Made by a program: the position numbers and the translations under genes
Notes under the pieces: model-generated
The model's database searches: none
The model's input: the letters and a program-made list of their open reading frames with translations, nothing else
What the model was told of the DNA's origin: nothing
Part shown: positions 44,617-60,539 of the stretch, piece after piece
Layout of the letters: each line of letters opens with the position of its first letter
Numbering within the stretch: position 1 is the stretch's first letter
Assembly (NCBI RefSeq): GCF_050920415.1
Contig: NZ_CP169309.1
DNA: 64,000 nt
DNA from: Escherichia coli
GTDB taxonomy: Bacteria; Pseudomonadota; Gammaproteobacteria; Enterobacterales; Enterobacteriaceae
Strand: one strand, 5' to 3'

Positions 44617-45195
44617 ATGGATCTGTTGATTGTTTTAACTTACGTGGCGCTGGCATGGGCGGTCTTTAAAATCTTCCGTATTCCGGTGAATCAGTGGACG
44701 CTGGCGACGGCGGCGCTGGGAGGCGTTTTTCTGGTAAGCGGTTTGATTTTGTTGATGAACTACAACCACCCTTACACTTTTACCGCACAGAAAGCGGTGA
44801 TTGCTATTCCCATCACGCCACAGGTGACGGGGATCGTGACTGAAGTCACTGACAAGAATAATCAGCTTATTCAGAAGGGCGAGGTGCTTTTTAAGCTCGA
44901 CCCGGTACGTTATCAGGCGCGAGTCGACAGACTTCAGGCTGACCTGATGACGGCGACGCATAATATAAAGACGCTGCGCGCGCAGCTCACTGAAGCGCAA
45001 GCCAATACCACCCAGGTTTCAGCGGAGCGTGACCGCTTGTTTAAAAATTATCAACGTTACCTGAAAGGCAGCCAGGCGGCGGTAAATCCGTTCTCAGAAC
45101 GTGATATCGACGATGCGCGGCAGAATTTTCTCGCGCAGGATGCGCTGGTGAAAGGTTCGGTGGCGGAACAGGCGCAAATCCAGAGCCAGCTCGAC
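44617..45195 (+). pseudogene. yibH: yibH 5' fragment (HlyD-family membrane fusion protein), 193 codons, interrupted by IS insertion
   Basis: [23 protein letters not shown]... reading frame runs into IS left end at 45196; the rest of the gene resumes at 47324. Confidence 0.85.
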
Positions 45196-45296
45196 TGTCA
45201 GCGCCAATGATATAAGACAGTAATTCACCATTTGGATTGTCCGCTCCACCCAACATGTTGTTTCCTTAAGGTTCCTACACCACAAAGGGAACACTC

Positions 45297-46343
45297 ATGC
45301 TGAGCAGAGAGGACTTTTACATGATAAAGCAAATGCGCCAGCAAGGTGCGTATATTGTTGATATTGCCACTCAGGTTGGTTGCTCTGAGCGGACTGTCAG
45401 ACGGTACCTGAAATACCCGGAACCTCCGGCCAGAAAAACACGCCACAAAATGGCCAAACTCAAGCCGTTCATGGACTATATCGACATGCGTCTGGCTGAG
45501 AATGTCTGGAACGGCGAGGTCATCCTGGCGGAAATCAAAGCGATGGGTTATACCGGTGGCCGTTCCATGTTGCGTTACTACATCCAGCCCAAACGTAAGA
45601 TGCGGCCATCGAAGAAAACGGTTCGCTTCGAAACTCAGCCCGGTTACCAGCTACAGCATGACTGGGGAGAAGTTGAGGCTGAGGTTGCCGGGCAACGATG
45701 CAGGGTTAACTTCGCGGTTAATACGCTGGGGTTCTCACGTCGCTTCCATGTCTTCGCGGCACCAAAGCAGGATGCTGAACATACCTATGAGTCACTGGTC
45801 CGCGCCTTTCGCTACTTCGGCGGCAGCGTGAAAACCGTGCTGGTCGATAACCAGAAAGCCGCAGTGCTGAAAAATAACAACGGGAAGGTGGTGTTCAACT
45901 CCGGGTTCCTGCTGCTGGCCGATCACTATGGCTTCCTGCCACGGGCCTGCCGTCCACGAAGGGCCAGAACCAAAGGTAAGGTGGAACGGATGGTGAAATA
46001 CCTCAAGGAAAACTTCTTCGTCCGGTACCGCCGGTTCGACAGCTTCGCCCATGTTAATCAGCTACTGGAGCAGTGGATGGCTGACGTTGCCGACAGGCGG
46101 GAACTTCGCCAGTTCAGGCAGACACCGGAACAGCGCTTCACGCAGGAACAGGTGCATCTGCAGGCGCTGCCAGGTACGGACTTCGATACCAGCTACTTCG
46201 ATATCCGTCATGTCTCCTGGGATGGCTATATCGAGGTTGGCGGGAACCGTTACAGCGTGCCGGAAAGCCTGTGTGGCCAGCCGGTATCAATACGGATCTC
46301 GCTGGATGATGAACTGCGATTTACAGTAATGAGCAACAGGTAG
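45297..46343 (+). pseudogene. istA: IS21-family transposase IstA, frameshifted near 3' end (348 aa as read; about 390 aa if the -1 shift around 46313-46343 is repaired, then ending at 46468)
   Basis: HTH N-terminus and integrase-core-like body; alternative frame open from 46313 to TGA at 46466-46468, which overlaps the istB ATG. Confidence 0.8.
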
Positions 46344-46455
46344 CATCGCACCGTCTCTGTTCGGCTGTATACGGCTGGCAGACCGTGCCGGAGCATCACG
46401 CCCCACTCTGGCAGCAGGTCAGTCAGGTGGAACACAGGCCGTTGAGTGCCTATGA

Positions 46456-47262
<807 letters not shown>

Positions 47263-47323
47263 TGACCAATAGCGGACATTAAAAATGGCGAAAAACGGCC
47301 AATAATCTTGGCGTTGACACGAC

Positions 47324-47881
47324 AGTATGGTTAACGGTGAGCAGTCGCAGATTGTCAGCTTAAGGGCGCAGCTTACCGAAGCGAAATATAACCTTGAGCA
47401 GACCGTCATTCGCGCGCCGAGCAATGGCTACGTTACTCAGGTACTGATCCGCCCAGGTACATACGCAGCTGCCTTGCCGCTACGTCCGGTGATGGTTTTC
47501 ATCCCCGAGCAAAAACGGCAAATTGTCGCCCAATTTCGGCAGAACTCGCTGTTACGTCTGAAACCCGGCGATGATGCGGAAGTAGTGTTTAACGCGCTAC
47601 CTGGGCAGGTGTTCCACGGCAAACTGACTAGTATTTTACCTGTCGTGCCAGGTGGTTCGTATCAGGCGCAGGGGGTACTGCAATCATTAACCGTCGTACC
47701 CGGCACGGACGGTGTGCTGGGAACCATCGAACTGGACCCTAACGCTGATATCGATGCTTTACCCGACGGCATCTACGCCCAGGTGGCAGTTTACTCCGAC
47801 CATTTCAGCCATGTTTCGGTGATGCGGAAGGTGCTGCTAAGAATGACCAGTTGGATGCATTATCTTTATTTGGATCATTGA
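47324..47881 (+). pseudogene. yibH: yibH 3' fragment (185 codons); joins in-frame with 44617-45195 to give 378 aa once IS and TSD are removed
   Basis: ...[32 protein letters not shown]... typical HlyD/EmrA-like; frame arithmetic confirms. Confidence 0.85.
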
Positions 47882-48915: not shown

Positions 48916-49128
48916 TTATAAAAAATCCTGAATACATTGGTCCATCTGAAATGAATTGAAATTTATCCCATGCTGACTATTCATTTCATAAATCAACGTT
49001 TCACCAAAACTTGTTAATGACAAAGTTCCTTTGGATGTATTACATAAAAAATAATTATTTCCTGCGTTTAGAGTCCAGGGAATTCCAGATAAAAAAATAA
49101 AAATTAATGCTCTATCTATATTGCTCAT
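48916..49128 (-). CDS. Small hypothetical protein (70 aa) with N-terminal hydrophobic segment; candidate immunity protein for the orphan muramidase-like toxin domain
   Basis: ORF start overlaps the stop of the orphan toxin ORF by 17 bp; MSNIDRALIFIFLSGIPWTLNAG... Confidence 0.35.
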   Translation of the reverse strand: MSNIDRALIFIFLSGIPWTLNAGNNYFLCNTSKGTLSLTSFGETLIYEMNSQHGINFNSFQMDQCIQDFL

Positions 49129-50276
49129 AATTAGCCCTTATTCTGTCATCATATCCTCGCTGACTTTGCCCATTATAACATAGAGCAAAGTTAAGCCAAT
49201 CTTTATCTCTAATAGCACGCAATAATACAGGATTAGATTTTATGAAGTTAATGAATGCCGCCAGATGGTTTTTCTCTGACTCTGAAATCGATATTATAAA
49301 CTCTTCGGGCGAAGAGTACCCGGCAGCTTGGTAATTTGAAGCCAATATCTGAAATTTACCCCACGATGCCGATTTAAGCGCAGCTTGCTTATCTAAAACA
49401 TATGCACGAAGTAATTTTTGATATTGCTCCGATCGTGTTCCATAACCGCCAGAACGGCTGTTGGAAATATCAGGTTGAGAATCATACACACCATTCGTAT
49501 ATCGATGGAAATGATGTCTTTCAAAAAGAATTGAGGGGACGTAATCATCTTCTTGTTCAAATTTAAAATAGCTACCGGAACTACCAGTTTCAGTTTTTGC
49601 AACAGCTTTAATTGCAGCCACTTCGCATTGTAGTGTCCTTGCAGCATTTTCATAGTCTGCATCATCAATGGTATCTCCGTTATAAAATCGTAAAAATTCC
49701 AATGGAATAAGTTCATTATTTACAGGAGTTTTTGGGTAATTGCTATTATTAATAGCATTCAAAAACACAACCGGATGAAAATGCCACACAGCATCATCAC
49801 TATTAAACGGAGACACCCCGCTCATCCACTCCAGATCCAGCTGCCACTTTTCACAGTATGCCACTTCCTCGGGTCCAGATCTTTATAAAACCCTTCCCAG
49901 CGTCCCGTCGAGCGACCGCCGTACCACTCGCTGTGGTGTCTGACTGTCAGACGATTCACCACATTTCTCACCAGTGGTTCACGCACGGTCAGCGCCTGTC
50001 TGATCTCTTCCTCCGTCACTTTTCCATCACCGTCCTGATCCATACCCGCCATCAGCTCACGATAAAAGGGCGGTACCTGCTCATACAGCCACTCATCTCC
50101 CTGTTCTGCGGCACGGCTTATTGAGTCAAACGCTTCCGGCACCCATCCTTCGTACGGGCTGTACGTCATGTCACCGCTGCTGTTCTCCTCCAGCGGCTGA
50201 AAACCCAGCTTCAGTAAATCATACTGTCCGGCCTCTTCAACATCCTTCTGTGGCAGCCAGCCGGTTCCGGTGATAT
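49112..50276 (-). pseudogene. Displaced (orphan) effector 3' module: shared pre-toxin region with EF-hand loop plus a distinct C-terminal N-acetylmuramidase-like domain; 5'-truncated and carrying a 1-nt frameshift near 49866
   Basis: 49764-50276 is near-identical to 52116-52630 of the full-length effector; downstream domain has ...FERHHFHRYT... and ...SWGKFQILASNY... motifs; no start codon; two overlapping ORFs (49822-50391, 49112-49864). Confidence 0.75.
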
Positions 50277-50572
50277 TAAGCCGCCTCTGGTTTCCTTTTA
50301 ATAAAGCACTCGTGAAATTTTGCAGGACTGATACAGGATACAACTCTGGCAATGGTATCGTGAACAGGAATACCATTATCAAAATCACCATATTGCTTCA
50401 AAAAATCGAGATGTGTTTCCCCAAAATCCTCTATATCTTCCCAGCCTTCTGCACCCGAAATAACGGCACAAATAGTCAACAGTAGAATATCCGATAATTT
50501 ATGTTGCACTTTCCAGGCTTGTCTGTAATCGGGGATAATAGAAATATGTCCCATCAATTTTTTAAGTTCCAT
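50276..50572 (-). pseudogene. H-repeat (ISAs1-family) transposase N-terminal fragment, copy 2 (about 92 codons then truncated)
   Basis: [64 protein letters not shown]... matches the start of E. coli H-rpt proteins, then loses homology. Confidence 0.8.
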
Positions 50573-50873: not shown

Positions 50874-51284
50874 TCATCCAGTCCATTTGCAATCAGTACC
50901 ATCATCATTATATGCCTCAATATTTTCTTCAAACTCAGTTGTTTTCCCACTTATTGATTTATAATGAAACAAATTAAATCTTGCACCTTGTGTGGAAACA
51001 ACATACAACCCATTAATTTTTCCATTTACAACCTCGCTCCATGCATAAGAAAATTCAGAAGGCCTGTCATCGAAAGTCACTTCTAATTTATTTATAAACG
51101 CAAGAGGTATAAATTTTGAGGATTTCTCATAAATCACATAACCTAAAAAAATATCGCCAGACGATATTTCAACAAACTTTAAATTTGTTTTCCCAGCGCT
51201 AAAACAGCCTACCGTTGTTTGTTGTTTAGCCAATAAACAACAAGGCACCAAACAAAACAGTAAAACCAATAAGTTAACTTTCAT
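50874..51284 (-). CDS. Candidate immunity protein (136 aa, cleavable signal peptide) for the upstream GH19-like effector
   Basis: MKVNLLVLLFCLVPCCLLA...; 5 bp downstream of effector stop; small secreted protein. Confidence 0.55.
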   Translation of the reverse strand: MKVNLLVLLFCLVPCCLLAKQQTTVGCFSAGKTNLKFVEISSGDIFLGYVIYEKSSKFIPLAFINKLEVTFDDRPSEFSYAWSEVVNGKINGLYVVSTQGARFNLFHYKSISGKTTEFEENIEAYNDDGTDCKWTG

Positions 51285-51289
51285 ATCAA

Positions 51290-53779
51290 TTACTCCAGTT
51301 CAGTTATTCGTCTCTCTACAAATGTGGATATATTCCTTTTTTCTATTCCATATACTTTTCTATCACCCTCACGCCCTTCCTGAGGAAACGGATGCAGGTC
51401 AATTAATTCTTTCGCCCTTCTATAACCTTTTAATGCTTCTTCGTTACTCTTGATCGTCCCTCTTCGGGAGCTATCAGGATCATGCCATATCCCCCATCCC
51501 AAAGCATATACTTTATTATCATATACGTCACTATCATCAAACAAGAAATCGTCGTTCATTGCTTTCTGATTTAAATGCTCGGCAGCAAGTGAGGTAACCA
51601 ATTTATTAAATATCGACAACCGTTCATCATAATGATTATACCCTCCATTAATCACTGCTGTAATTTTATTAAAATCATCATTTTTAGCATCTTCATTTAT
51701 TCTTTTGAATATATTGAAATACCAAAACGCAGATAATACGCAATGTGGGGAGGATATAAGTTTATCTCTTGCGGAATCTGAAGATGTTACGTCCTCATTG
51801 ATATATTCCCCATAGGCGGTGTAATTACTTTCCCCTGTAACTTGTATTAAGCCTCGGCCATACCACGGACTATATGAAGCTGATTCACCATTAATTTCTT
51901 TGGTATATCTAAAATAACCGCTCTCGTGAATAATTTGAGCAAGAAAATGGGCTTTTTCTCTACAAGTGGTCATACCAAACCGAATAAACCCTGCATTTAT
52001 ATCGTAGAGGTACCTTTTGAGAAGACCTTCACTTACTGCAGGAGCAACTTTTTTTAATTCATCTAATGTTATATCTCTGTTGCAAGCACACACAGATTTG
52101 GAATTAATAGCGTCCAAAAACACAACCGGATGAAAATGCCACACAGCATCATCACTATTAAACGGAGATACCCCGCTCATCCACTCCAGATCCAGCTGCC
52201 ACTTCTCACAGTATGCCACTTCCTCTGTGTCCAGATCTTTATAAAATCCTTCCCACCGCCCTGTCGAGCGCCCTCCGTACCATTCGCTGTGGTGTTTAAC
52301 TATCAGATGATTCACCACATTTCTCACCAGTGGTTCACGCACGGTCAGCGCCTGTCTGATCTCTTCCTCCGTCACTTTTCCATCACCGTCCTGATCCATA
52401 CCCGCCATCAGCTCACGATAAAAGGGCGGTACCTGCTCATACAGCCACTCATCTCCCTGTTCTGCGGCACGGCTTATTGAGTCAAACGCTTCCGGCACCC
52501 ATCCTTCGTACGGGCTGTACGTCATGTCACCGCTGCTGTTCTCCTCCAGCGGTTGAAAACCCAGCTTCAGTAAATCATACTGTCCGGCCTCTTCAACATC
52601 CTTTTGTGGCAGCCAGCCGGTTCCGGTGATATTAAACCACCACTGCTGCGATTCATCCGTGATCGGTGTCGTGGCTTCCCGCGGAAGAACGCGCTGAGCA
52701 CCCAGTGTGGCTGCGGTTGCGGTAAATACCTCCTGTCCCGGAACGGCCTGCCGGGTGTATAAAATTATCCCTTTTGGTGCCAGAACAGTCCGTTTTTCTC
52801 CCTTAACGCCTGCCGGGTTGGATAAGAACTTTGGCATATTCGGGTCTGTACTCAGAACCTCCAGATGGACGAACCACTCGCGCTCAATCTCACCGCTTCC
52901 CTCGCCAGGATAATCCTCGCATCCCATAAATCCGACCGGTGTTCCGGCACTGACTTTCCACTCTTCCGTTTCGTCGACCGTCTGTACCGAGTCAAAAATG
53001 CCTTTTGCCTTCGCCTTCTGCATCCACTCAGGCATCAGCATCTGTATTTCGCCATCTGACTCCATCAGATCCGGATCCAGGGTCACCCAGTACTGCTCAT
53101 TCCCCGGTTTATTGCCTTCCAGCAGGCGAACCAGTCCGAATGTCGTCAGGACCGGCTGGCCGTTATTGGTCACGTAAAAACGTCCGGTCCGGGATGACAC
53201 AAACCGATCTCCCGCATTAAGTGTCCTGTTTCCGCTGATTTTCGGGGGTATCCAGTACGTGGCATGATCTCCGCTTTCCTGCCCCTCGGGAAGGCCGTTC
53301 TTTCCCGGGATGTATCGGTGCAGCAATATGCCACCATGCCCGGTTTTAACTTTATAGCAGGGGGAGCCGGGATAATCGTTCACCGGGGCCAGATGCATAT
53401 AGAGACAGTAAAATTCCAGCCAGCTTTCTTTTTTTTGCGGGTCTGGCTGGCACTGCGATTTCACCAGAACAAATGTGCTGCTGTAACGGAGTTGCTGCCC
53501 TTTGTAGGTGCCTTTCAGGTAATCATTATTTATCCGGTACGCCGCAATGGTGCCATCGGCCATAAACTGAAGAGGAACCGGTTCTCCGGTAGCGGCGGTA
53601 TCCGGTTTCAGGGCTGATAACGGATTAGACACGTCACTGATATGTATCCCGCCGTGCCACAGCCCGTTTCCACCCAGCAGCCAGGTTCCGTGCGCTTCTT
53701 TGTCAATAAGCCGCATTATCTCATCCAGCGAGCGAAACTCTTTGCCTTCTTTATCCCTGATGGGATGGCTGATTTTCAT
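51290..53779 (-). CDS. VgrG-linked candidate T6SS effector, 829 aa: N-terminal domain of unknown function, central EF-hand-like Ca-binding loop, C-terminal GH19/lysozyme-like peptidoglycan hydrolase domain
   Basis: 9 bp downstream of vgrG stop; DQDGDGKVTEEE loop; C-terminal ...AHFLAQIIHESGYFRYTKE...YGRGLIQVTGESNYTAYG...LSAFWYFN... resembling the GH19 / COG3179 signature. Confidence 0.7.
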   Translation of the reverse strand: MKISHPIRDKEGKEFRSLDEIMRLIDKEAHGTWLLGGNGLWHGGIHISDVSNPLSALKPDTAATGEPVPLQFMADGTIAAYRINNDYLKGTYKGQQLRYSSTFVLVKSQCQPDPQKKESWLEFYCLYMHLAPVNDYPGSPCYKVKTGHGGILLHRYIPGKNGLPEGQESGDHATYWIPPKISGNRTLNAGDRFVSSRTGRFYVTNNGQPVLTTFGLVRLLEGNKPGNEQYWVTLDPDLMESDGEIQMLMPEWMQKAKAKGIFDSVQTVDETEEWKVSAGTPVGFMGCEDYPGEGSGEIEREWFVHLEVLSTDPNMPKFLSNPAGVKGEKRTVLAPKGIILYTRQAVPGQEVFTATAATLGAQRVLPREATTPITDESQQWWFNITGTGWLPQKDVEEAGQYDLLKLGFQPLEENSSGDMTYSPYEGWVPEAFDSISRAAEQGDEWLYEQVPPFYRELMAGMDQDGDGKVTEEEIRQALTVREPLVRNVVNHLIVKHHSEWYGGRSTGRWEGFYKDLDTEEVAYCEKWQLDLEWMSGVSPFNSDDAVWHFHPVVFLDAINSKSVCACNRDITLDELKKVAPAVSEGLLKRYLYDINAGFIRFGMTTCREKAHFLAQIIHESGYFRYTKEINGESASYSPWYGRGLIQVTGESNYTAYGEYINEDVTSSDSARDKLISSPHCVLSAFWYFNIFKRINEDAKNDDFNKITAVINGGYNHYDERLSIFNKLVTSLAAEHLNQKAMNDDFLFDDSDVYDNKVYALGWGIWHDPDSSRRGTIKSNEEALKGYRRAKELIDLHPFPQEGREGDRKVYGIEKRNISTFVERRITELE

Positions 53780-53788
53780 GTTCAGTCC

Positions 53789-55990
53789 TTATCGTGAGAA
53801 TCTTCCCGGCCGTTGTGGCGGTACCTTATCCTGCTGGGGAGGATCAAAGGCTTCCTGTACATTTTTCCGTGGTGGCTCCGCCCCTTCAGTTCCAGGTCCG
53901 CCATTGTCATAATCTGCCAGCGCTTTCAAAACCGCCGGTCGTAGTGTCGGCACCGGCGTTCCCGGACTACCGCCGCTATTGAGATTGATTTTCGGCCCGA
54001 CGATGTCCACGCCCCCTGAATGGATGACCACAAACGAACCACCCACCTTCAGGGTGATTTTACCGCCACTCTCCAGTACGATTTCATCCCGGACCTTCAT
54101 TCCCAGCGCACCGGTAATCTTCCTCGCCAGGTCGCCCTTCACCTCCAGACTGTGCGTTCCCTCCACCAGACTGATATGGTTCCCCGTCGTCTTATGCTCC
54201 TGCTTCCCTTCCACCGTCACTTTACGGTCGTTTCTGACATACAGGCCGTCATCGTGACTCACGCTCACCGTCCGGTCATTCGTCACCTTCAGCGTCTGGT
54301 CATTACGTACCGTTATGCGCCGGTCGTTCGCCACCGTGATACTCTGGTCGTGGCCCCCTTCTTTTCTGGTGCCGACCTCAACCGTCTGCCCCTTCACCAC
54401 CCTTATCTTCTGGTCGTTACCGATGGTCTCCGTATGGTCATGCTTCACGTCCGTCGTCCGGTCGTTAAGCACCTCCGTGTCCATGTTCTTCTGCGCGTGG
54501 ATATACACCTGCTCACTGTCCGTCGCATCCTCGAAACGCAGTTCATTAAAGCCGCTTCCTTTATAGGTCTTCGAGCGGATGGTCATCTGCGTCCGCGTGC
54601 CCGGTAAATCCCCCGGTGAACGGTTATCTTCATGGTAGGTCCGCCCCGTCACAATGGGCTGGTCCGGGTCGCCGTTCAGAAAGTCCACTATCACTTCCTG
54701 ACCCACACGCGGTATCGCCAGATTGCCGAACCCCGGTCCCGCCCATGCCTGCGACACCCGTATCCAGCATGAACTCTCCTCCGTCATCCCGTGATAACGG
54801 TCCCAGTGAAACTTCACCCGTACCCGGCCATGCTCGTCGCAGAATATCTCCTCGCCCTTCGGCCCGGTCACGATGGCACTCTGCGGGCCGTCCACCTTCG
54901 GCTTCGGCAGGGGCTGTGAGCGCCAGGTCCGGTCTGCCGGGATGACCGTGATATGGTTACTCAGTGTCGTTCCCCTCCCCTGGCTCCCGTGCAGCGCCTG
55001 CGGCTGGCTCCCCGTCAGCGTGCTGCTCACCACCTGCCACTCACGGTTCGGGTTCGCTCCCTGTACCGGATGCCCCGTCAGGGTGAACCGCCGTCCCGGC
55101 CACAGCGCCGGGGAGTTACTGATACCTGTGGCGGTTTCAGCACTGTTACGCAGCCCTTCCAGCCGGTAGCGGGTAAAGTCCTGACCATGCTGCTCGTCCT
55201 TGTAGCGCCCCGGCCAGTCCAGGATTTTGTACTGCTTCAGTTGCTCGTTGAGGTTTTCAGCATCCTCAATGTAAATACCCGGCCAGTCCGGCACCTTAAA
55301 CGTGTGGTCTTTTGAACGCACCTGCGAGGGCCGCACCTGCGCCTGGTAGCGGAACAGGCTGATGCACGCCGTCGTCACCTCACGGGTGTTCGGGTTAAAC
55401 GGTATCTCCCCGTACACCGGCAGGCCCGCCACATCATCGCACAGCGTGAGCGTCTGCTCCGGGCTGTCGTCAGCGTATCTGTCATAAAAGAAGATGCCTT
55501 CCTCCGCCCACAGCCGGGTCAGAAACGCCAGGTCGCTTTCACCGTACTGGACGCAGAACTCCCGTGCCGGGTGGCTCTCATAAAAGCGCGGCGTCCACTG
55601 CGTCACTCCGTCCTCGTTTAACAGCGTGGCGGAGATGGCCTGAATGTCCTGCTGCTGGAAGATTCGGTAGTTCTGCCGCAGCCCGCTGCGCCACAGGGGC
55701 GGGCGTATCTGAAGGTGGTACTGCATCTGCCAGCCGTTGTGCTCCTTCATGCCTAACCCCGACACCACACCGCTCACATAACGCAGCGCCGTGCCACCCT
55801 GCCAGATGGTCAGCACGGCCCCCTTCTCCAGCAGCTTCTCCGCCGTCTGGCGGAACGAGTCGCTGGCAACGTCCACATCCAGGACGAACGGCGATGAGTA
55901 TGCCTGCGTGAGGCGGAAATCCACCACCGCGAACGTCTCCGGCACCAGTCCGTCCACCGTCAGCGTAAAACGCAGCCCTTTTAATGACAT
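53789..55990 (-). CDS. vgrG: T6SS spike protein VgrG (copy B), 733 aa
   Basis: MSLKGLRFTLTVDGL...; gp27/gp5-like regions (...GQEVIVDFLNGDPDQPIVTGRTYH...) and C-terminal beta-helix repeats (VKHDHTETIG...ITVANDRRITVRNDQTLKVTNDRTVSV...). Confidence 0.9.
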   Translation of the reverse strand: MSLKGLRFTLTVDGLVPETFAVVDFRLTQAYSSPFVLDVDVASDSFRQTAEKLLEKGAVLTIWQGGTALRYVSGVVSGLGMKEHNGWQMQYHLQIRPPLWRSGLRQNYRIFQQQDIQAISATLLNEDGVTQWTPRFYESHPAREFCVQYGESDLAFLTRLWAEEGIFFYDRYADDSPEQTLTLCDDVAGLPVYGEIPFNPNTREVTTACISLFRYQAQVRPSQVRSKDHTFKVPDWPGIYIEDAENLNEQLKQYKILDWPGRYKDEQHGQDFTRYRLEGLRNSAETATGISNSPALWPGRRFTLTGHPVQGANPNREWQVVSSTLTGSQPQALHGSQGRGTTLSNHITVIPADRTWRSQPLPKPKVDGPQSAIVTGPKGEEIFCDEHGRVRVKFHWDRYHGMTEESSCWIRVSQAWAGPGFGNLAIPRVGQEVIVDFLNGDPDQPIVTGRTYHEDNRSPGDLPGTRTQMTIRSKTYKGSGFNELRFEDATDSEQVYIHAQKNMDTEVLNDRTTDVKHDHTETIGNDQKIRVVKGQTVEVGTRKEGGHDQSITVANDRRITVRNDQTLKVTNDRTVSVSHDDGLYVRNDRKVTVEGKQEHKTTGNHISLVEGTHSLEVKGDLARKITGALGMKVRDEIVLESGGKITLKVGGSFVVIHSGGVDIVGPKINLNSGGSPGTPVPTLRPAVLKALADYDNGGPGTEGAEPPRKNVQEAFDPPQQDKVPPQRPGRFSR
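54085..54930. repeat. About 0.85-kb block near-identical to 58422-59267 (internal vgrG segment shared by both paralogs, offset 4337 bp)
   Basis: Antisense ORFs 54020-54607 and 54616-54945 are letter-identical to parts of 58204-58944 and 58953-59534; VgrG proteins identical over about 270 residues. Confidence 0.85.
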
Positions 55991-56145
55991 GATGACCTCC
56001 CTGGTATTGCTACAGGAAAAAGTAATTAACCGATATTGACCGTACCTTCTGATATTCTCTCACTGATTCATTATCTGTATTTCCCATGAACATTCTCATT
56101 TCAACAGGAAAACCAACGAATTGTAGCCATGACAATAAGTTAACA

Positions 56146-57075
56146 TTAATAATTCCTCAACGAATAAGGAGGAGATGCCCTGTCCCCATCAATAGTAACC
56201 ACGACCTGATTTGATCTTATTTTGAATATATTATCATTACCGCCATGATAGCCAAATCGTGCTAAAAAATCCTGAAATAGACCAGGTCCTCTATAAGGTC
56301 CACAGATTCTCCAAACCCGCCACTCCTCTATGCCATACGTTATTTTATCTATAGGATTAGTACACTCTCTTTCTGCCCGCCAGTTCATAATAGAAAGAAA
56401 ATACTCATATATATATTGTTCTGCAAACCACTCTTGATTAACTATTGTAAATTCTACCGTCCCTATATTATAACGATGAATGCCCGGTAAAAAGGCATAA
56501 TAATCGTTCAATGTGACATCAAAGGATAGCTCTTTCCCTGGTAATATCTCGCGCCAAACAGATTTACTTTTCCATTCACCAAAGCTACATTTTGTTTTTT
56601 TTAAAAAATCCAACTGAATGTTATCCATTATCGGTATAAACACACCACTACACAAGGAAGAGTAAGGCCCGCCGTTAACGTCAAGAGGAAGAGTTAGTCG
56701 ATGAACAAAATAAGATCCCTGGCTTTTATTCGATAAAACCACTGCAGCTGCTACAATATTTTCTTTCTGATGCACGGAAAGATGAAGATATATTTTATTT
56801 TTATCCTGATTATACTGACTCTCATTTTTACTGATAGTATAATATTGAAAAACAGCATAGGCTGAAAGATCATCATAATAATCATAATAATTAAGCCTTG
56901 TCGGTTCTACACGAGGATAGACACCAAGTTTTTCCATTACTCCATTCCAATGTAACTTCCCATATCTGTAATGAACCGCATAATCGCCAGAGATATCATA
57001 AGCAAATATTGGATGCACCCAAGAAAAAAAAGCAATAAAAACAATCCATCTAGCAAGCATATACTCCCCCGTCAA
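56146..57075 (-). CDS. Candidate immunity protein (309 aa, N-terminal signal peptide) for the upstream HExxH effector
   Basis: MLARWIVFIAFFSWVHPIFAYD... signal peptide; 9 bp downstream of the metallopeptidase-like gene; Trp/Tyr-rich. Confidence 0.5.
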   Translation of the reverse strand: MTGEYMLARWIVFIAFFSWVHPIFAYDISGDYAVHYRYGKLHWNGVMEKLGVYPRVEPTRLNYYDYYDDLSAYAVFQYYTISKNESQYNQDKNKIYLHLSVHQKENIVAAAVVLSNKSQGSYFVHRLTLPLDVNGGPYSSLCSGVFIPIMDNIQLDFLKKTKCSFGEWKSKSVWREILPGKELSFDVTLNDYYAFLPGIHRYNIGTVEFTIVNQEWFAEQYIYEYFLSIMNWRAERECTNPIDKITYGIEEWRVWRICGPYRGPGLFQDFLARFGYHGGNDNIFKIRSNQVVVTIDGDRASPPYSLRNY

Positions 57076-57084
57076 ATAAAAGCA

Positions 57085-57930
57085 TCAATATGGTACAGGA
57101 ATCTCGAAATAACGTTCGATATTATATGCATTCTGAAACAGTTCTGATTTTTTATCATTTTTTAATTTAGTGGCATGAGCAATATATTCGTCACCTGTAC
57201 TATACTCTATATCTACCGGCATATCTTCCGTCCACATGCCTCCAAACTTAAGTGAATCCCCGTACCTTATAAAGTGAGATAGTTCATGGCAGAGTGTCGA
57301 TGCCTTAGAGTTTTCCCCAGTGAATGGCCTATCTATAAATCTTTGTCCTATAGTTATACTTACCAAACTTTTAAAGCTTCCAGATTTTACACCCAAAATC
57401 TGATCGTAAGTTACATTGGCAGCATAAGCGTCATTATCTGTACAATTCACAAAGTTACCAATTTTGGGCCTGATTACGTCTTTGTCAACATATTCATTAC
57501 CCCCTTTGTCATTAAGAACAAGATTACAATTGGCATCACGTTTGAGGAAATGGTCATGAACGGTAACGTCTACACAATCACCTTCCACAGATAATTCCCC
57601 ACATATCTCATACAGGCGAGTAACGCCATTTCTCATATAATCCCTTGCCTTTATATTCTCTGTAAACAGAGTATTACGCCCCCCGAAAGGGAACTTTAAT
57701 TTAATATAAGTATTTCCATCAATGCCAAATATATTTATAAATTCCTGATTTTGTTCCGCCCCCCATTTATCACCAAGATCTTCTACTCTTTTTTTCAATA
57801 CAGCCATCTGCGCCTTCAGAGCCTCTCTCATCATTATTTTAAAATCATTAGTAATTTTCCCCTCCTTTAAAACTACACACTGTTCACCACTCTGGCTTTT
57901 TCCGCTCGTACTACCCTTTTCATCTCCCAT
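57085..57930 (-). CDS. VgrG-linked candidate effector, 281 aa, with HExxH zinc-metallopeptidase motif (TLCHELSHF)
   Basis: Follows vgrG copy A by 81 bp; HELSH motif in C-terminal third; no signal peptide. Confidence 0.6.
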   Translation of the reverse strand: MGDEKGSTSGKSQSGEQCVVLKEGKITNDFKIMMREALKAQMAVLKKRVEDLGDKWGAEQNQEFINIFGIDGNTYIKLKFPFGGRNTLFTENIKARDYMRNGVTRLYEICGELSVEGDCVDVTVHDHFLKRDANCNLVLNDKGGNEYVDKDVIRPKIGNFVNCTDNDAYAANVTYDQILGVKSGSFKSLVSITIGQRFIDRPFTGENSKASTLCHELSHFIRYGDSLKFGGMWTEDMPVDIEYSTGDEYIAHATKLKNDKKSELFQNAYNIERYFEIPVPY

Positions 57931-58011
57931 ATAAATCCTCCTTGGTATATATTTTCACTACAAACCCTGTTCCATTTATGCAAAAACACGCCAATTACAG
58001 GCGGTCACTCT

Positions 58012-60324
58012 CTATTCATTAATCCCTCCCCATATCATATCGATATTCAAATGCAACAATCTGACGTCTATTGTCTGCTCGCTGTCAGTGGTGAATATTT
58101 CCGTATACCCATCCTTATCCGTTTCTCCGCGGGTCTGCGTGCCGTCCTCAAAGAAGGCAATGTAGCGTGTCTCTGAATACGGTATCCCGTCATCGTCTGT
58201 AAAATGGAACTGGAGAGTATATTTTTCAGGGTTCTCATCATCATTCTCATCCTCCAGCGCCTCCAGTACAACCGGTTGCAGCGTCGATACTGGCGTCCCC
58301 GGACCTCCCCCACCATTCAGGTTTATCTTCGGCCCCACTATATCCACGCCGCCAGAGTGTATCACCACGAACGAACCGCCCGCTTTCAGGCTTATCTGGC
58401 TGCTGCTCTCCAGCACGATATCCCCGTCCACCTTTATCCCCAGCGCGCCACTCACCTTCTCCGCCAGGTCACCCTTCACCTCCAGGCTGTGTTTCCCCTC
58501 CACCAGGCTGATATGGTTTCCCGTCGTCTTATGCTCCTGCTTCCCTTCCACCGTCACTTTACGGTCGTTTCTGACATACAGGCCGTCATCGTGACTCACG
58601 CTCACCGTCCGGTCATTCGTCACCTTCAGCGTCTGGTCATTACGTACCGTTATGCGCCGGTCGTTCGCCACCGTGATACTCTGGTCGTGACCCCCTTCTT
58701 TTCTGGTGCCGACCTCAACCGTCTGCCCCTTCACCACCCTTATCTTCTGGTCGTTACCGATGGTCTCCGTATGGTCATGCTTCACGTCCGTCGTCCGGTC
58801 GTTAAGCACCTCCGTGTCCATGTTCTTCTGCGCGTGGATATACACCTGCTCACTGTCCGTCGCATCCTCGAAACGCAGTTCATTAAAGCCGCTTCCTTTA
58901 TAGGTCTTCGAGCGGATGGTCATCTGCGTCCGCGTGCCCGGTAAATCCCCCGGTGAACGGTTATCTTCATGGTAGGTCCGCCCCGTCACAATGGGCTGGT
59001 CCGGGTCGCCGTTCAGAAAGTCCACTATCACTTCCTGACCCACACGCGGTATCGCCAGATTGCCGAACCCCGGTCCCGCCCATGCCTGCGACACCCGTAT
59101 CCAGCATGAACTCTCCTCCGTCATCCCGTGATAACGGTCCCAGTGAAACTTCACCCGTACCCGGCCATGCTCGTCGCAGAATATCTCCTCACCCTTCGGC
59201 CCGGTCACGATGGCACTCTGCGGGCCGTCCACCTTCGGCTTCGGCAGCGGCGCGTGACGCCACGTCCTGTCTGCCGGTATCACCTCAAACTGATTGCTCA
59301 GTGTCGTCCCTTCACCGTGACTCCCGTGCAGCGCCTGCGGCTGTTCTCCCCGCAGTGTGCTTCCCACAACCTGCCATTCCCGGTTCAGCGTCGCTGACGG
59401 ATGGCCCGTCAGCCGGAACCGCGTTCCCGGCCACAGCCGCGCCGTGTTACACACCCCGCTCGCCGTCTCCGCCCCGTTCCGCCACCCTTCCGTCTGGTAA
59501 CGCGCAAAATCCTGGCCATGCTGCTCATCCTTGAAACGCCCCGGATAATCAAATATCTCGTACTGCGTTCCCTGTCCGTTCAGGCTCTCCCCGTCATGGC
59601 TGTAGTACCCCGGCCACCCCGGCGTTTTGAACGTATAATCCTGCGTCTCCACCGACGCCACGCTTATCTGCGCACGGTAACGGAAGTCGCGGATGTACTC
59701 TGTCGTGCCTCCGGTCGTGGTATTCGGGTTAAACGCCAGCGCCCCCATTCCCGTCAGCCCCGCCACGTCATCACACACCGCCAGCTTCTGTTCCGGCCCG
59801 TCCTGACTGCAGCGTTCATAAAAGAAGATACCTTCCTCCGCCCACAGCCGGGTCAGGAATGTCAGGTCGCTCTCCCCGTACTGCACGCAGAACTCCCGCG
59901 CCGGGTGCGCCTCATAGAACAGCGGCATCCACGCCGTCACCCCGTTCTCTTCAAGAAGCTGCGCTGATATCGTCTGAATGTCCTGCTGCTGGAAGATACG
60001 GAAGTTCTGCCGTAACCCTGCCCGCCACAGCGGCGGGCTGATGCTCAGGGAATAACGCATCTGCCAGTCGTTGTTCTCACCGAGCTGCACCTCTGTCACG
60101 ATACCGCTGACGTAACGCTGTGCAGTGTCGCCCTGCCAGACCGTCAGCACCGCGCTTTTCTCCAGAAAATCTTCTGCCGTCAGGTCAGACAGTCCGCTGG
60201 CGATATCCACATCCAGGATGAACGGTGTGCAGTGGTGCTGGTACAGACGGAAGCTCACCACCGCCGTCGCCATCTCCACAATACCGTCCACCGACAGCGT
60301 GAAACGTAATCCTTCTGCTGCCAT
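58012..60324 (-). CDS. vgrG: T6SS spike protein VgrG (copy A) with about 100-aa C-terminal extension, 770 aa from MAAEGLRFTL (the ORF in the track starts 11 codons upstream)
   Basis: Same domain order as copy B; extra C-terminal tail ...EKYTLQFHFTDDDGIPYSETRYIAFFEDGTQTRGETDKDGYTEIFTTDSEQTIDVRLL... Confidence 0.9.
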   Translation of the reverse strand: MAAEGLRFTLSVDGIVEMATAVVSFRLYQHHCTPFILDVDIASGLSDLTAEDFLEKSAVLTVWQGDTAQRYVSGIVTEVQLGENNDWQMRYSLSISPPLWRAGLRQNFRIFQQQDIQTISAQLLEENGVTAWMPLFYEAHPAREFCVQYGESDLTFLTRLWAEEGIFFYERCSQDGPEQKLAVCDDVAGLTGMGALAFNPNTTTGGTTEYIRDFRYRAQISVASVETQDYTFKTPGWPGYYSHDGESLNGQGTQYEIFDYPGRFKDEQHGQDFARYQTEGWRNGAETASGVCNTARLWPGTRFRLTGHPSATLNREWQVVGSTLRGEQPQALHGSHGEGTTLSNQFEVIPADRTWRHAPLPKPKVDGPQSAIVTGPKGEEIFCDEHGRVRVKFHWDRYHGMTEESSCWIRVSQAWAGPGFGNLAIPRVGQEVIVDFLNGDPDQPIVTGRTYHEDNRSPGDLPGTRTQMTIRSKTYKGSGFNELRFEDATDSEQVYIHAQKNMDTEVLNDRTTDVKHDHTETIGNDQKIRVVKGQTVEVGTRKEGGHDQSITVANDRRITVRNDQTLKVTNDRTVSVSHDDGLYVRNDRKVTVEGKQEHKTTGNHISLVEGKHSLEVKGDLAEKVSGALGIKVDGDIVLESSSQISLKAGGSFVVIHSGGVDIVGPKINLNGGGGPGTPVSTLQPVVLEALEDENDDENPEKYTLQFHFTDDDGIPYSETRYIAFFEDGTQTRGETDKDGYTEIFTTDSEQTIDVRLLHLNIDMIWGGINE

Positions 60325-60539
60325 ATAAACCCCATAGCTACCGCACTCATAGTGCAAACCATACGGGCTTATAAGAAAGGCTTAAGTGAGATATCTGCCA
60401 GATAGCAACTATTAGGAAAATATTTATATCACCATGATAAATATGTGATTTATTGGGAGATAACAAACCATCAACATTTTCTGCCCTTTTTCCCATCACC
60501 AGGCCATACTGATATTTTTCCTCGCACAAAGGACTCGGC

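Follow-up and report, generated by a model that had tools for sequence, protein, structure and literature searches.

A probable type VI secretion effector-immunity cassette of Escherichia coli with an M35-like metallopeptidase and an exported partner protein

A 64,000-nucleotide (nt) stretch of Escherichia coli DNA (contig NZ_CP169309.1), called the window below, carries on its minus strand two adjacent genes whose products could kill and protect bacteria, respectively. They lie directly downstream of vgrG-A, which encodes a spike protein of a type VI secretion system (T6SS). The original prediction, made from the DNA letters and their open reading frames (ORFs), took the pair to be a zinc-dependent toxin and a periplasmic immunity protein delivered with vgrG-A. 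Our data support this proposal through the conservation of the catalytic motifs, the linkage of the genes in 9 of 9 loci and the published toxicity of relatives. We estimate a probability of about 80% that the pair is a T6SS cargo effector-immunity cassette consisting of an M35 zinc endopeptidase and its periplasmic immunity protein. As such it is a rare allele of an already recognised class of T6SS toxin-antidote pairs.

The mechanism that we propose is as follows. The 281-aa toxin would be a zinc endopeptidase of the aspzincin fold, with His215, His219 and Asp236 as the ligands and Glu216 as the catalytic base. It would be made in the cytoplasm of the attacker, dock on the ~72-aa transthyretin-like (TTR) tail at the C-terminus of VgrG-A, and ride into neighbouring Gram-negative cells on the spike of a T6SS whose genes lie elsewhere in the genome. 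Docking and delivery are suggested by the strict linkage, by the homology of the tail to the TTR region of VgrG1 from enteroaggregative E. coli (EAEC) and by published co-immunoprecipitation data on E. coli strain PAR. Inside the prey the toxin may act in the periplasm and cleave one or more envelope substrates, as the exported immunity protein and the published periplasm-only toxicity of a probable family member indicate. The 304-aa partner, exported by Sec, would protect sister cells by binding the protease, presumably blocking its active site.

The toxin ORF has exactly one HExxH motif (H215-E-L-S-H219), as originally reported, and a hydrophilic N-terminus with no signal peptide. The rest of the protein had been described as unassignable, which is true of the Pfam and NCBIfam scans but not of a profile search, a profile-profile comparison and a fold search, all of which give M35. 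A single-sequence search of the PDB sequences returned only a marginal match to 1g12 (E 0.069), and a family profile was therefore needed. This profile matched M35 structures only, namely 1g12 (E 1e-4) and 2x3a (E 5e-4). Using hhalign, the family aligned with 16 members of PF14521 (Aspzincin_M35) with a probability of 99.7% and E 2e-25. The aligned span takes in the N-terminal helices, the HExxH and GTxD motifs and the C-terminal helix. These 16 sequences were taken from among the weaker matches of a search of 1.84 billion proteins and all belong to PF14521; fusions to PAAR occur in three of them, to VgrG/gp5 domains in two and to Hcp in one. We predicted the 3D structure of the toxin using AlphaFold, with a predicted local distance difference test (pLDDT) score of 77 and a predicted template modelling (TM) score of 0.79. 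The top matches of this model in the PDB using Foldseek are 1ge6 (the Grifola frondosa peptidyl-Lys metalloendopeptidase, GfMEP; E 4e-4, target TM score 0.75), 2x3a (AsaP1 of Aeromonas salmonicida) and 1eb6 (deuterolysin), and no further match has an E-value below 0.9. In two of the three matching genomes, the annotation of the NCBI Prokaryotic Genome Annotation Pipeline (PGAP) also reads 'M35 family metalloendopeptidase'. The profile-based and structure-based searches suggested in the original prediction thus agree with each other, and its tentative protease assignment is firmed up to that of an M35 aspzincin. Judged from sequence profiles and a predicted fold, the toxin is a divergent aspzincin (MEROPS M35), for which zinc binding and proteolysis would be expected.

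The toxin family is small: we found 12 clusters of homologs in a search of 5.8 billion proteins, and 22 representatives at E<=1e-30 among the 1.84 billion. The family alignment has 13 members, i.e. the window toxin and 12 database homologs, with identities of 28-59%. HExxH, D236, Y269 and E272 are invariant in all 13; the original prediction had made its case depend on HExxH being conserved in this way. Three blocks are invariant in the alignment: S..STLCHELSH, GGMGT(D/E)D (of which Asp236 is the invariant position) and NAYNIERYFE. The earlier statement that no third zinc ligand or aspzincin motif is recognisable has to be withdrawn, as a degenerate GTxD exists (W233-T-E-D236). Its Asp236 lies 17 residues past H219 and falls in the GT.D column of the PF14521 members, i.e. 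on Asp130 of 1g12. The alignment places H215, E216 and H219 on H117, E118 and H121 of GfMEP, which are two zinc ligands and the catalytic Glu, and D236 on D130, the third zinc ligand; the ligands of 1GE6 are given in PMC3268031. In the C-terminal helix the invariant E272 corresponds to E157 of GfMEP, the residue responsible for its specificity at P1' (PMC11985622), where the E157D mutant takes Arg as well (PMC11985622).

The toxin shares with GfMEP (1g12/1ge6) and AsaP1 the fold, HExxH, the Asp third ligand in GTxD, the S..(S/A)GTL.HE.SHF context and the C-terminal NA.N.E.YF.E helix with the Glu157 equivalent. It differs from them in having no secretion signal and no N-terminal propeptide, in a disordered stretch of 25 residues at the N-terminus, in an additional insertion at residues ~117-160, in WTED instead of GTxDxxYG, in Tyr269 instead of Asp154, and in lying below Pfam detection. 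It also differs in its proposed T6SS delivery into bacteria and its control by a separate immunity protein. Its nearest detectable sequence relatives outside the family are the polymorphic toxins in which Aspzincin_M35 is fused to PAAR, VgrG, Hcp or Rhs. These are also delivered by T6SS, but the fusion is covalent and the motifs are the canonical GTxDxxYG and NADNFEY, whereas the window toxin is a free-standing cargo.

The toxin and its partner are linked in other genomes as well. We compared nine loci, i.e. the window and eight others: two modules of an E. coli T6SS core cluster (L003, also in strain PAR), loci of Buttiauxella (L006), Enterobacter (L010) and Citrobacter (L011), two metagenome contigs (L012 and L013) and a vgrG-PAAR island of uropathogenic E. 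coli KE48 (L015). The Hcp-M35 locus L017 was left out because its context is too short. The gene order is the same in 9 of 9 loci, with a VgrG carrying the TTR tail followed by the toxin and an immunity homolog. The immunity homologs are 31-45% identical to that of the window, with toxin identities of 31-63%. An unrelated partner with no linkage elsewhere would have spoken against the original prediction; instead the partner accompanies the toxin family at every locus. N-termini resembling signal peptides are found on the immunity proteins of eight of the nine loci, the exception being the first L003 module.

In that module (L003 8742-9591) the signal-peptide region of the immunity gene is out of frame with the remainder, with the shift inside a run of T that marks a frameshift or else a slippery tract. 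The gene call begins past the leader, and in PAR the protein annotated by RefSeq is shorter. KE48 has two immunity copies, of which the second carries the leader. The toxin ATG overlaps the vgrG stop in L003, L006, L010 and L011 (GGxGGxGTAAATGAGTGA), where the Gly-Gly codons at the overlapping vgrG end double as the ribosome-binding site. The window has instead an 81-nt spacer between vgrG-A and the toxin gene, with an AAGGAGG of its own. The end of vgrG-A (ATTAATGAATAG, window 58005-58020) retains the ATG used as the overlapping toxin start elsewhere, out of frame, and in the window it opens only a 4-codon ORF. In L011 (Citrobacter farmeri) the pair is directly followed by a vgrG truncated to 391 aa and by a fragment of 121 aa that matches Aspzincin_M35 weakly (L011 6826-8594); these resemble the decayed remains of another M35 module in tandem.

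The second ORF was originally read as a 309-aa protein with a signal peptide. The ORF does extend over 309 aa from a TTG (56146-57075, minus strand), but the likelier start is the ATG at 57058-57060, which gives 304 aa, is preceded by GGGGGAG and is also used by PGAP in strain MFDS1022581. The protein begins with a typical Sec signal peptide (MLARWIVFIAFFSWVHPIFA, predicted to be cleaved before YD) with no lipobox, and the richness in aromatic residues noted before is confirmed at 8.9% Tyr and 3.0% Trp. Four Cys are invariant across the immunity family, which fits an oxidising periplasm, and probably form two disulfides. No Pfam, NCBIfam or PDB sequence match was found for this protein; the NCBIfam scan covered six proteins of the island.

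The second ORF shares the reading frame of the toxin ORF, from which a single TGA (57085-57087) separates it, and this raises the question of whether the two are one 594-aa gene broken by a nonsense mutation, in which case the window would hold a pseudogene and no separate partner. Strain N96 (99.9% identical; L002 12147-13931) has TTA in place of the TGA through one G-to-T change, and hence PGAP calls a single 594-aa 'M35 family metalloendopeptidase' (WP_000502244.1) there. We consider a broken single gene hardly credible. Not only the window but also MFDS1022581 and the 96%-identical RMDEC465 have the TGA; the 12 database toxin homologs are 195-278 aa long and all end at the same ...YNIERYFE motif; and toxin and immunity protein are called as separate genes, with varied spacing, in the eight other loci. 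In addition, a Shine-Dalgarno sequence, an ATG and a signal peptide stand exactly at the junction, and an internal signal peptide would make no sense in a fusion. The TGA in RMDEC465, the homolog lengths and the separate calls elsewhere show that the two-gene reading is the correct one, and the fusion in N96 is probably a mutation or a sequencing error.

The TTR tail could be the element through which the toxin is loaded. The nine linked VgrGs share the tail pattern ..F.F.DDDG.PY..T.Y.A.F.DG....G.TD..G.T..F.....I.VRLL...IDM..GG.NE. and fall into two backbone classes that are ~25% identical, the DUF2345 type in the core cluster versus the gp5-trimer type in the orphan islands. The occurrence of the tail, toxin and immunity genes on two unrelated VgrG backbones suggests that loading is determined by the tail and not by DUF2345. 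VgrG-B, the second spike of the window, shares 78.6% identity with VgrG-A over 697 aa; the similarity ends exactly at the tail, which is absent from VgrG-B, and the toxin that follows is a different one. Across 36 locus pairs the Spearman correlation of tail identity was 0.53 with toxin identity and -0.09 with VgrG core identity, values that are indicative only, as the pairs are not independent. We infer that the tail and the genes for toxin and immunity protein are transferred together as a single cassette, in which the tail would be the docking site.

The Pfam scan of the VgrG tail gave no match. Searching the PDB with a tail profile identified the C-terminal region of EAEC VgrG1 (6SJL residues 780-823; E 6e-4 for the whole sequence and 0.011 for the aligned stretch alone) and VgrG2b (6H56 residues 9-61, E 0.011), where the matched segment lies ahead of the toxin domain. 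The EAEC VgrG1-Tle1 system (6SJL, 6SK0) is thus similar to the window system in that its VgrG ends in a TTR-like domain matching the tail profile and the cargo and immunity genes are directly downstream, in the same cluster position. Its cargo is a phospholipase, reportedly loaded through the C-terminal TTR domain of VgrG1.

Experiments on relatives of the pair have been published. In E. coli PAR, AKO63_2955 ('M35PAR') kills E. coli and AKO63_2956 neutralises it (Commun Biol 2023, PMC10673891), and co-immunoprecipitation showed that M35PAR binds VgrG only through the 'DUF2345PAR' protein AKO63_2954 (PMC10673891). The only split vgrG in the PAR RefSeq genome is a pseudogene with a 1-nt insertion and a nonsense codon (L008 8848-11365). 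Its C-terminal 250-aa fragment carries the TTR tail and is followed by a 262-aa and a 308-aa gene, whose products are 47% and 45% identical to the window toxin and immunity protein. The 'VgrG' and 'DUF2345' genes of PMC10673891 are apparently fragments of one vgrG. The PAR pair and the window pair thus belong to the same families and have the same gene order and the same TTR-like VgrG tail, whereas the PAR pair is inside the T6SS core cluster with a DUF2345-type VgrG and the window pair is in an orphan island at yibF with a gp5-type VgrG. The PAR study credits DUF2345 with binding the toxin, but the fragment tested is the C-terminal 250 aa, including the tail. Since this fragment holds the tail, and VgrG-A has the tail but no significant DUF2345 match in the Pfam scan (E 0.34), the tail may be what mediates the binding that the study assigned to DUF2345. 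Toxicity, on which the original prediction had staked its case, is therefore on record for a related pair, together with its neutralisation.

The second published relative is the 'M35-peptidase' of E. coli BCE049, which is toxic only with a PelB leader, i.e. in the periplasm (PMC7904677). The same study describes an 'effector locus 1' of eight proteins in ~9.2 kb with two VgrGs and PAAR (PMC7904677). The KE48 locus has the same eight-gene makeup, and its 200-aa 'peptidase M35' is a short member of the toxin family; the TTR tail is again found upstream of it, and homologs of the immunity protein downstream.

The toxin could alternatively be a virulence protease directed against a host, with the 304-aa protein serving as a chaperone or co-effector. 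AsaP1, a structural relative, is a virulence factor of the fish pathogen Aeromonas salmonicida, and its PDB entry calls it a 'toxic extracellular endopeptidase'. Some T6SS effectors do act across kingdoms (PMC6899460). We regard an anti-host role as highly unlikely, as an adjacent, co-diverging and Sec-exported partner is the signature of antibacterial effectors that act in the periplasm. Furthermore, the partner of the PAR paralog neutralises the toxicity in E. coli (PMC10673891), deletion of the BCE049 effector locus left mouse virulence unchanged (PMC7904677), and the neighbouring modules of the island encode toxins of the cell-wall hydrolase type.

It has also been proposed that the PAR toxin is equivalent to the 'M35' toxin domain of VgrG2b (PMC10673891). 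The window toxin would then belong with the VgrG2b C-terminal domain and Tpe1, thermolysin-like gluzincins that disturb cell division and deplete membrane lipoproteins. The two systems do have features in common: the VgrG2b C-terminal domain and Tpe1-Tpi1 are also HExxH metallopeptidases of T6SS acting in the periplasm, their immunity proteins are exposed at the envelope (PMC6899460), and a TTR-like segment, the one weakly matched by our tail profile, precedes the toxin. This match covers the TTR-like linker and not the catalytic domain. The third ligand of the VgrG2b domain, which is fused to its VgrG, is Glu983, making it a gluzincin of subclan MA(E) (PMC6899460), whereas the third ligand predicted for the window toxin is the Asp of a GTxD motif. 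Neither the family profile nor a profile of the PF14521 members matched 6H56, and no catalytic-domain similarity to the window toxin is detectable. Nor is 6H56 among the 50 Foldseek matches listed, at the top of which are all three M35 structure families. Our profile and fold tests thus do not support the published equation, we rejected the membership in VgrG2b/Tpe on the Asp ligand, the profiles and the matches listed, and we consider it very improbable.

Several observations weigh against the interpretation of the pair as an M35 effector-immunity cassette. The Pfam-A scan of the toxin gave nothing even at E<=10, and neither did the NCBIfam scan. The aspzincin motif reads WTED in the window toxin versus GGMGTDD in most homologs, with W for the first G and no YG, and the invariant Y269 stands where GfMEP has the second-shell Asp154, which hydrogen-bonds His117 (PMC3268031). 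The toxicity and neutralisation experiments concern relatives and would apply to the window allele by analogy. AKO63_2955 and AKO63_2956 can safely be taken as the 262-aa and 308-aa genes of PAR, and the BCE049 M35-peptidase is probably a shorter family member, both being mapped by locus architecture and not by printed sequences. According to the annotation there are no T6SS core genes within the 64-kb window, so that delivery would rely on a T6SS encoded outside it. The cassette is also rare, with carriers in 3 of 5426 complete E. coli genomes. Finally, the substrate and the P1' preference discussed below are a guess from a single conserved residue.

The missing domain matches and the degenerate motif, with Tyr for Asp154, would also fit a fortuitous or vestigial HExxH in a toxin that works without proteolysis, e.g. 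through membrane insertion or target binding. We think this unlikely, with only a small chance of being correct. The catalytic and zinc-binding positions are all invariant across homologs as little as 28% identical (range 28-59%), the fold agrees with the M35 enzymes over the whole catalytic domain, and an HExxH arises by chance in only 0.5% of the shuffles of the 281-aa protein. A metallopeptidase thus remains our preferred reading of the toxin. The invariance of Glu272, equivalent to the P1'-Lys determinant Glu157 of GfMEP, would favour a cut N-terminal to Lys or to a Lys-like residue such as meso-diaminopimelate (mDAP). Going by this sequence feature, our guess is that the candidate substrates may include lipoproteins, Lpp-peptidoglycan links and stem peptides.

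The immunity protein may be related to the propeptides of M35 enzymes, which are made as zymogens with inhibitory propeptides (PMC11985622). Its predicted model has a pLDDT of 54 overall and ~80 in the beta-sandwich core, so that its fold matches can serve as leads only; Foldseek lists AsaP1 among them as well. A metagenomic PAAR-Aspzincin_M35 toxin is followed by a 135-aa protein that matches the hidden Markov model of the immunity family with 18.6 bits. It aligns over its full length with the core of the window immunity protein, which is more than twice as long. Among 177,635 PDB sequences its best match is to residues 38-103 of AsaP1 (E=1), in the N-terminal propeptide region upstream of the catalytic domain. 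Aligning the window immunity core with this AsaP1 fragment by hhalign gave the same register (P 0.0013, probability 18%). We speculate that the inhibitory N-terminal propeptide of M35 zymogens has in the immunity protein a free-standing descendant, or else a structural mimic. The pair would then be a 'split zymogen', with the toxin as the mature protease lacking its prodomain and the prodomain-like beta-sandwich encoded by a gene of its own, exported to the periplasm and plugging the active site in trans. The conserved Glu272 pocket would accept a Lys-like residue from the inhibitor as well as from the envelope substrate (Lpp, other lipoproteins or mDAP stem peptides). This idea is tentative and in our judgement somewhat more likely to be wrong than right. 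The profiles of the window immunity family gave nothing significant against the PDB sequences, and the poor predicted model also counts against it. A homolog search with the 135-aa protein returned itself only, and hence no broader profile could be built.

On the E. coli chromosome the pair is located in a vgrG island between yibH/yibI and yibF. Positions 56000-58050 match the genome of MFDS1022581 with 100% identity, and in the annotation of that genome the gene run is mutM, the waa cluster, mtlA and yibI, and then yibF, selA and selB. The G+C content falls from 0.53-0.65 in the vgrG genes to 0.35-0.38 over 56000-58000. A promoter and terminator scan was uninformative, with 13 promoter-like sites versus 7.6 +/- 2.6 expected in AT-rich DNA and no terminator after the immunity gene. 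VgrG-A contains the Pfam domains Phage_GPD, Phage_base_V and Gp5_trimer_C; PGAP starts the gene at 60324 (770 aa), and it is called tssI in MFDS1022581. The coordinates of the features are given in Table 1.

Table 1. Features of the vgrG-A tail, toxin and immunity region (positions in the window; all on the minus strand)
Feature	Position	Strand	Basis or remark
vgrG-A, T6SS spike protein	58012..60357	-	781 aa from TTG; NCBIfam TIGR03361, E 1.9e-177
TTR-like C-terminal tail of VgrG-A (~72 aa), proposed toxin docking site	58015..58230	-	Homology to 8 other linked VgrG tails
Toxin Shine-Dalgarno AAGGAGG, 6 nt ahead of ATG	57937..57943	-	Sequence reading
Toxin gene, 281 aa, divergent aspzincin (M35-like) zinc metallopeptidase, predicted	57085..57930	-	ORF, profile and fold evidence
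HELSH (H215, E216, H219), predicted two zinc ligands and catalytic Glu	57274..57288	-	Aligns with H117/E118/H121 of 1g12
WTED (233-236), degenerate aspzincin GTxD; Asp236 predicted third zinc ligand	57223..57234	-	Alignment
NAYNIERYFE (267-276), C-terminal helix, equivalent to NADNHEYFSE of GfMEP	57103..57132	-	Alignment
Toxin TGA stop, in frame with the immunity ORF	57085..57087	-	Sequence comparison
Immunity Shine-Dalgarno GGGGGAG	57064..57070	-	Sequence reading
Immunity gene, 304-aa precursor, predicted periplasmic export, four invariant Cys	56146..57060	-	Homologs downstream of every toxin homolog examined
Sec signal peptide MLARWIVFIAFFSWVHPIFA, predicted cleavage before YD	57001..57060	-	Sequence reading
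Beta-sandwich core of the immunity protein (residues 84-215)	56416..56811	-	Last strand at residues ~278-291

The island contains a second module (window 50874-55990) which, as originally described, mirrors the first: vgrG-B (53789-55990) is followed by an 829-aa protein and a 136-aa protein with a signal peptide. The 829-aa protein is a multidomain protein with an EF-hand-like segment (DGDGKVTEEE), named GH19 glycoside hydrolase or chitinase by PGAP in other strains, and the module presumably encodes an effector that degrades cell walls, with its immunity protein. Positions 49112-50572 hold a third module, now decayed. At 49822-50391 it contains a second copy of ~130 aa from the 829-aa protein (NITGTGWLPQKDVEEAG...GFYKDLD), attached to another C-terminal domain that is annotated as N-acetylmuramidase, with remnants of an ISAs1 transposase on the flanks; the arrangement resembles the displaced alternative toxin tips in the orphan arrays of rhs genes. 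The two spike genes are 99-100% identical in DNA over ~600 nt mid-gene (vgrG-A 58560-59160) and 53-90% elsewhere, which suggests a recent gene conversion between them. At the far edge of the island an IS21-family element, ISEc62 (istA and a frameshifted istB, window ~44617-47881), splits the HlyD-family gene yibH.

Our analysis places the toxin family firmly among the aspzincins through Asp236, apart from the VgrG2b/Tpe gluzincins to which a published study had assigned it. The TTR-like tail provides a simple rule to predict which VgrG carries an M35-like toxin, and the conserved Glu of the P1' pocket leads to a specific and testable prediction of the substrate. If the immunity core does derive from an M35 propeptide, the pair would be a clear example of an effector-immunity pair that arose from a zymogen.

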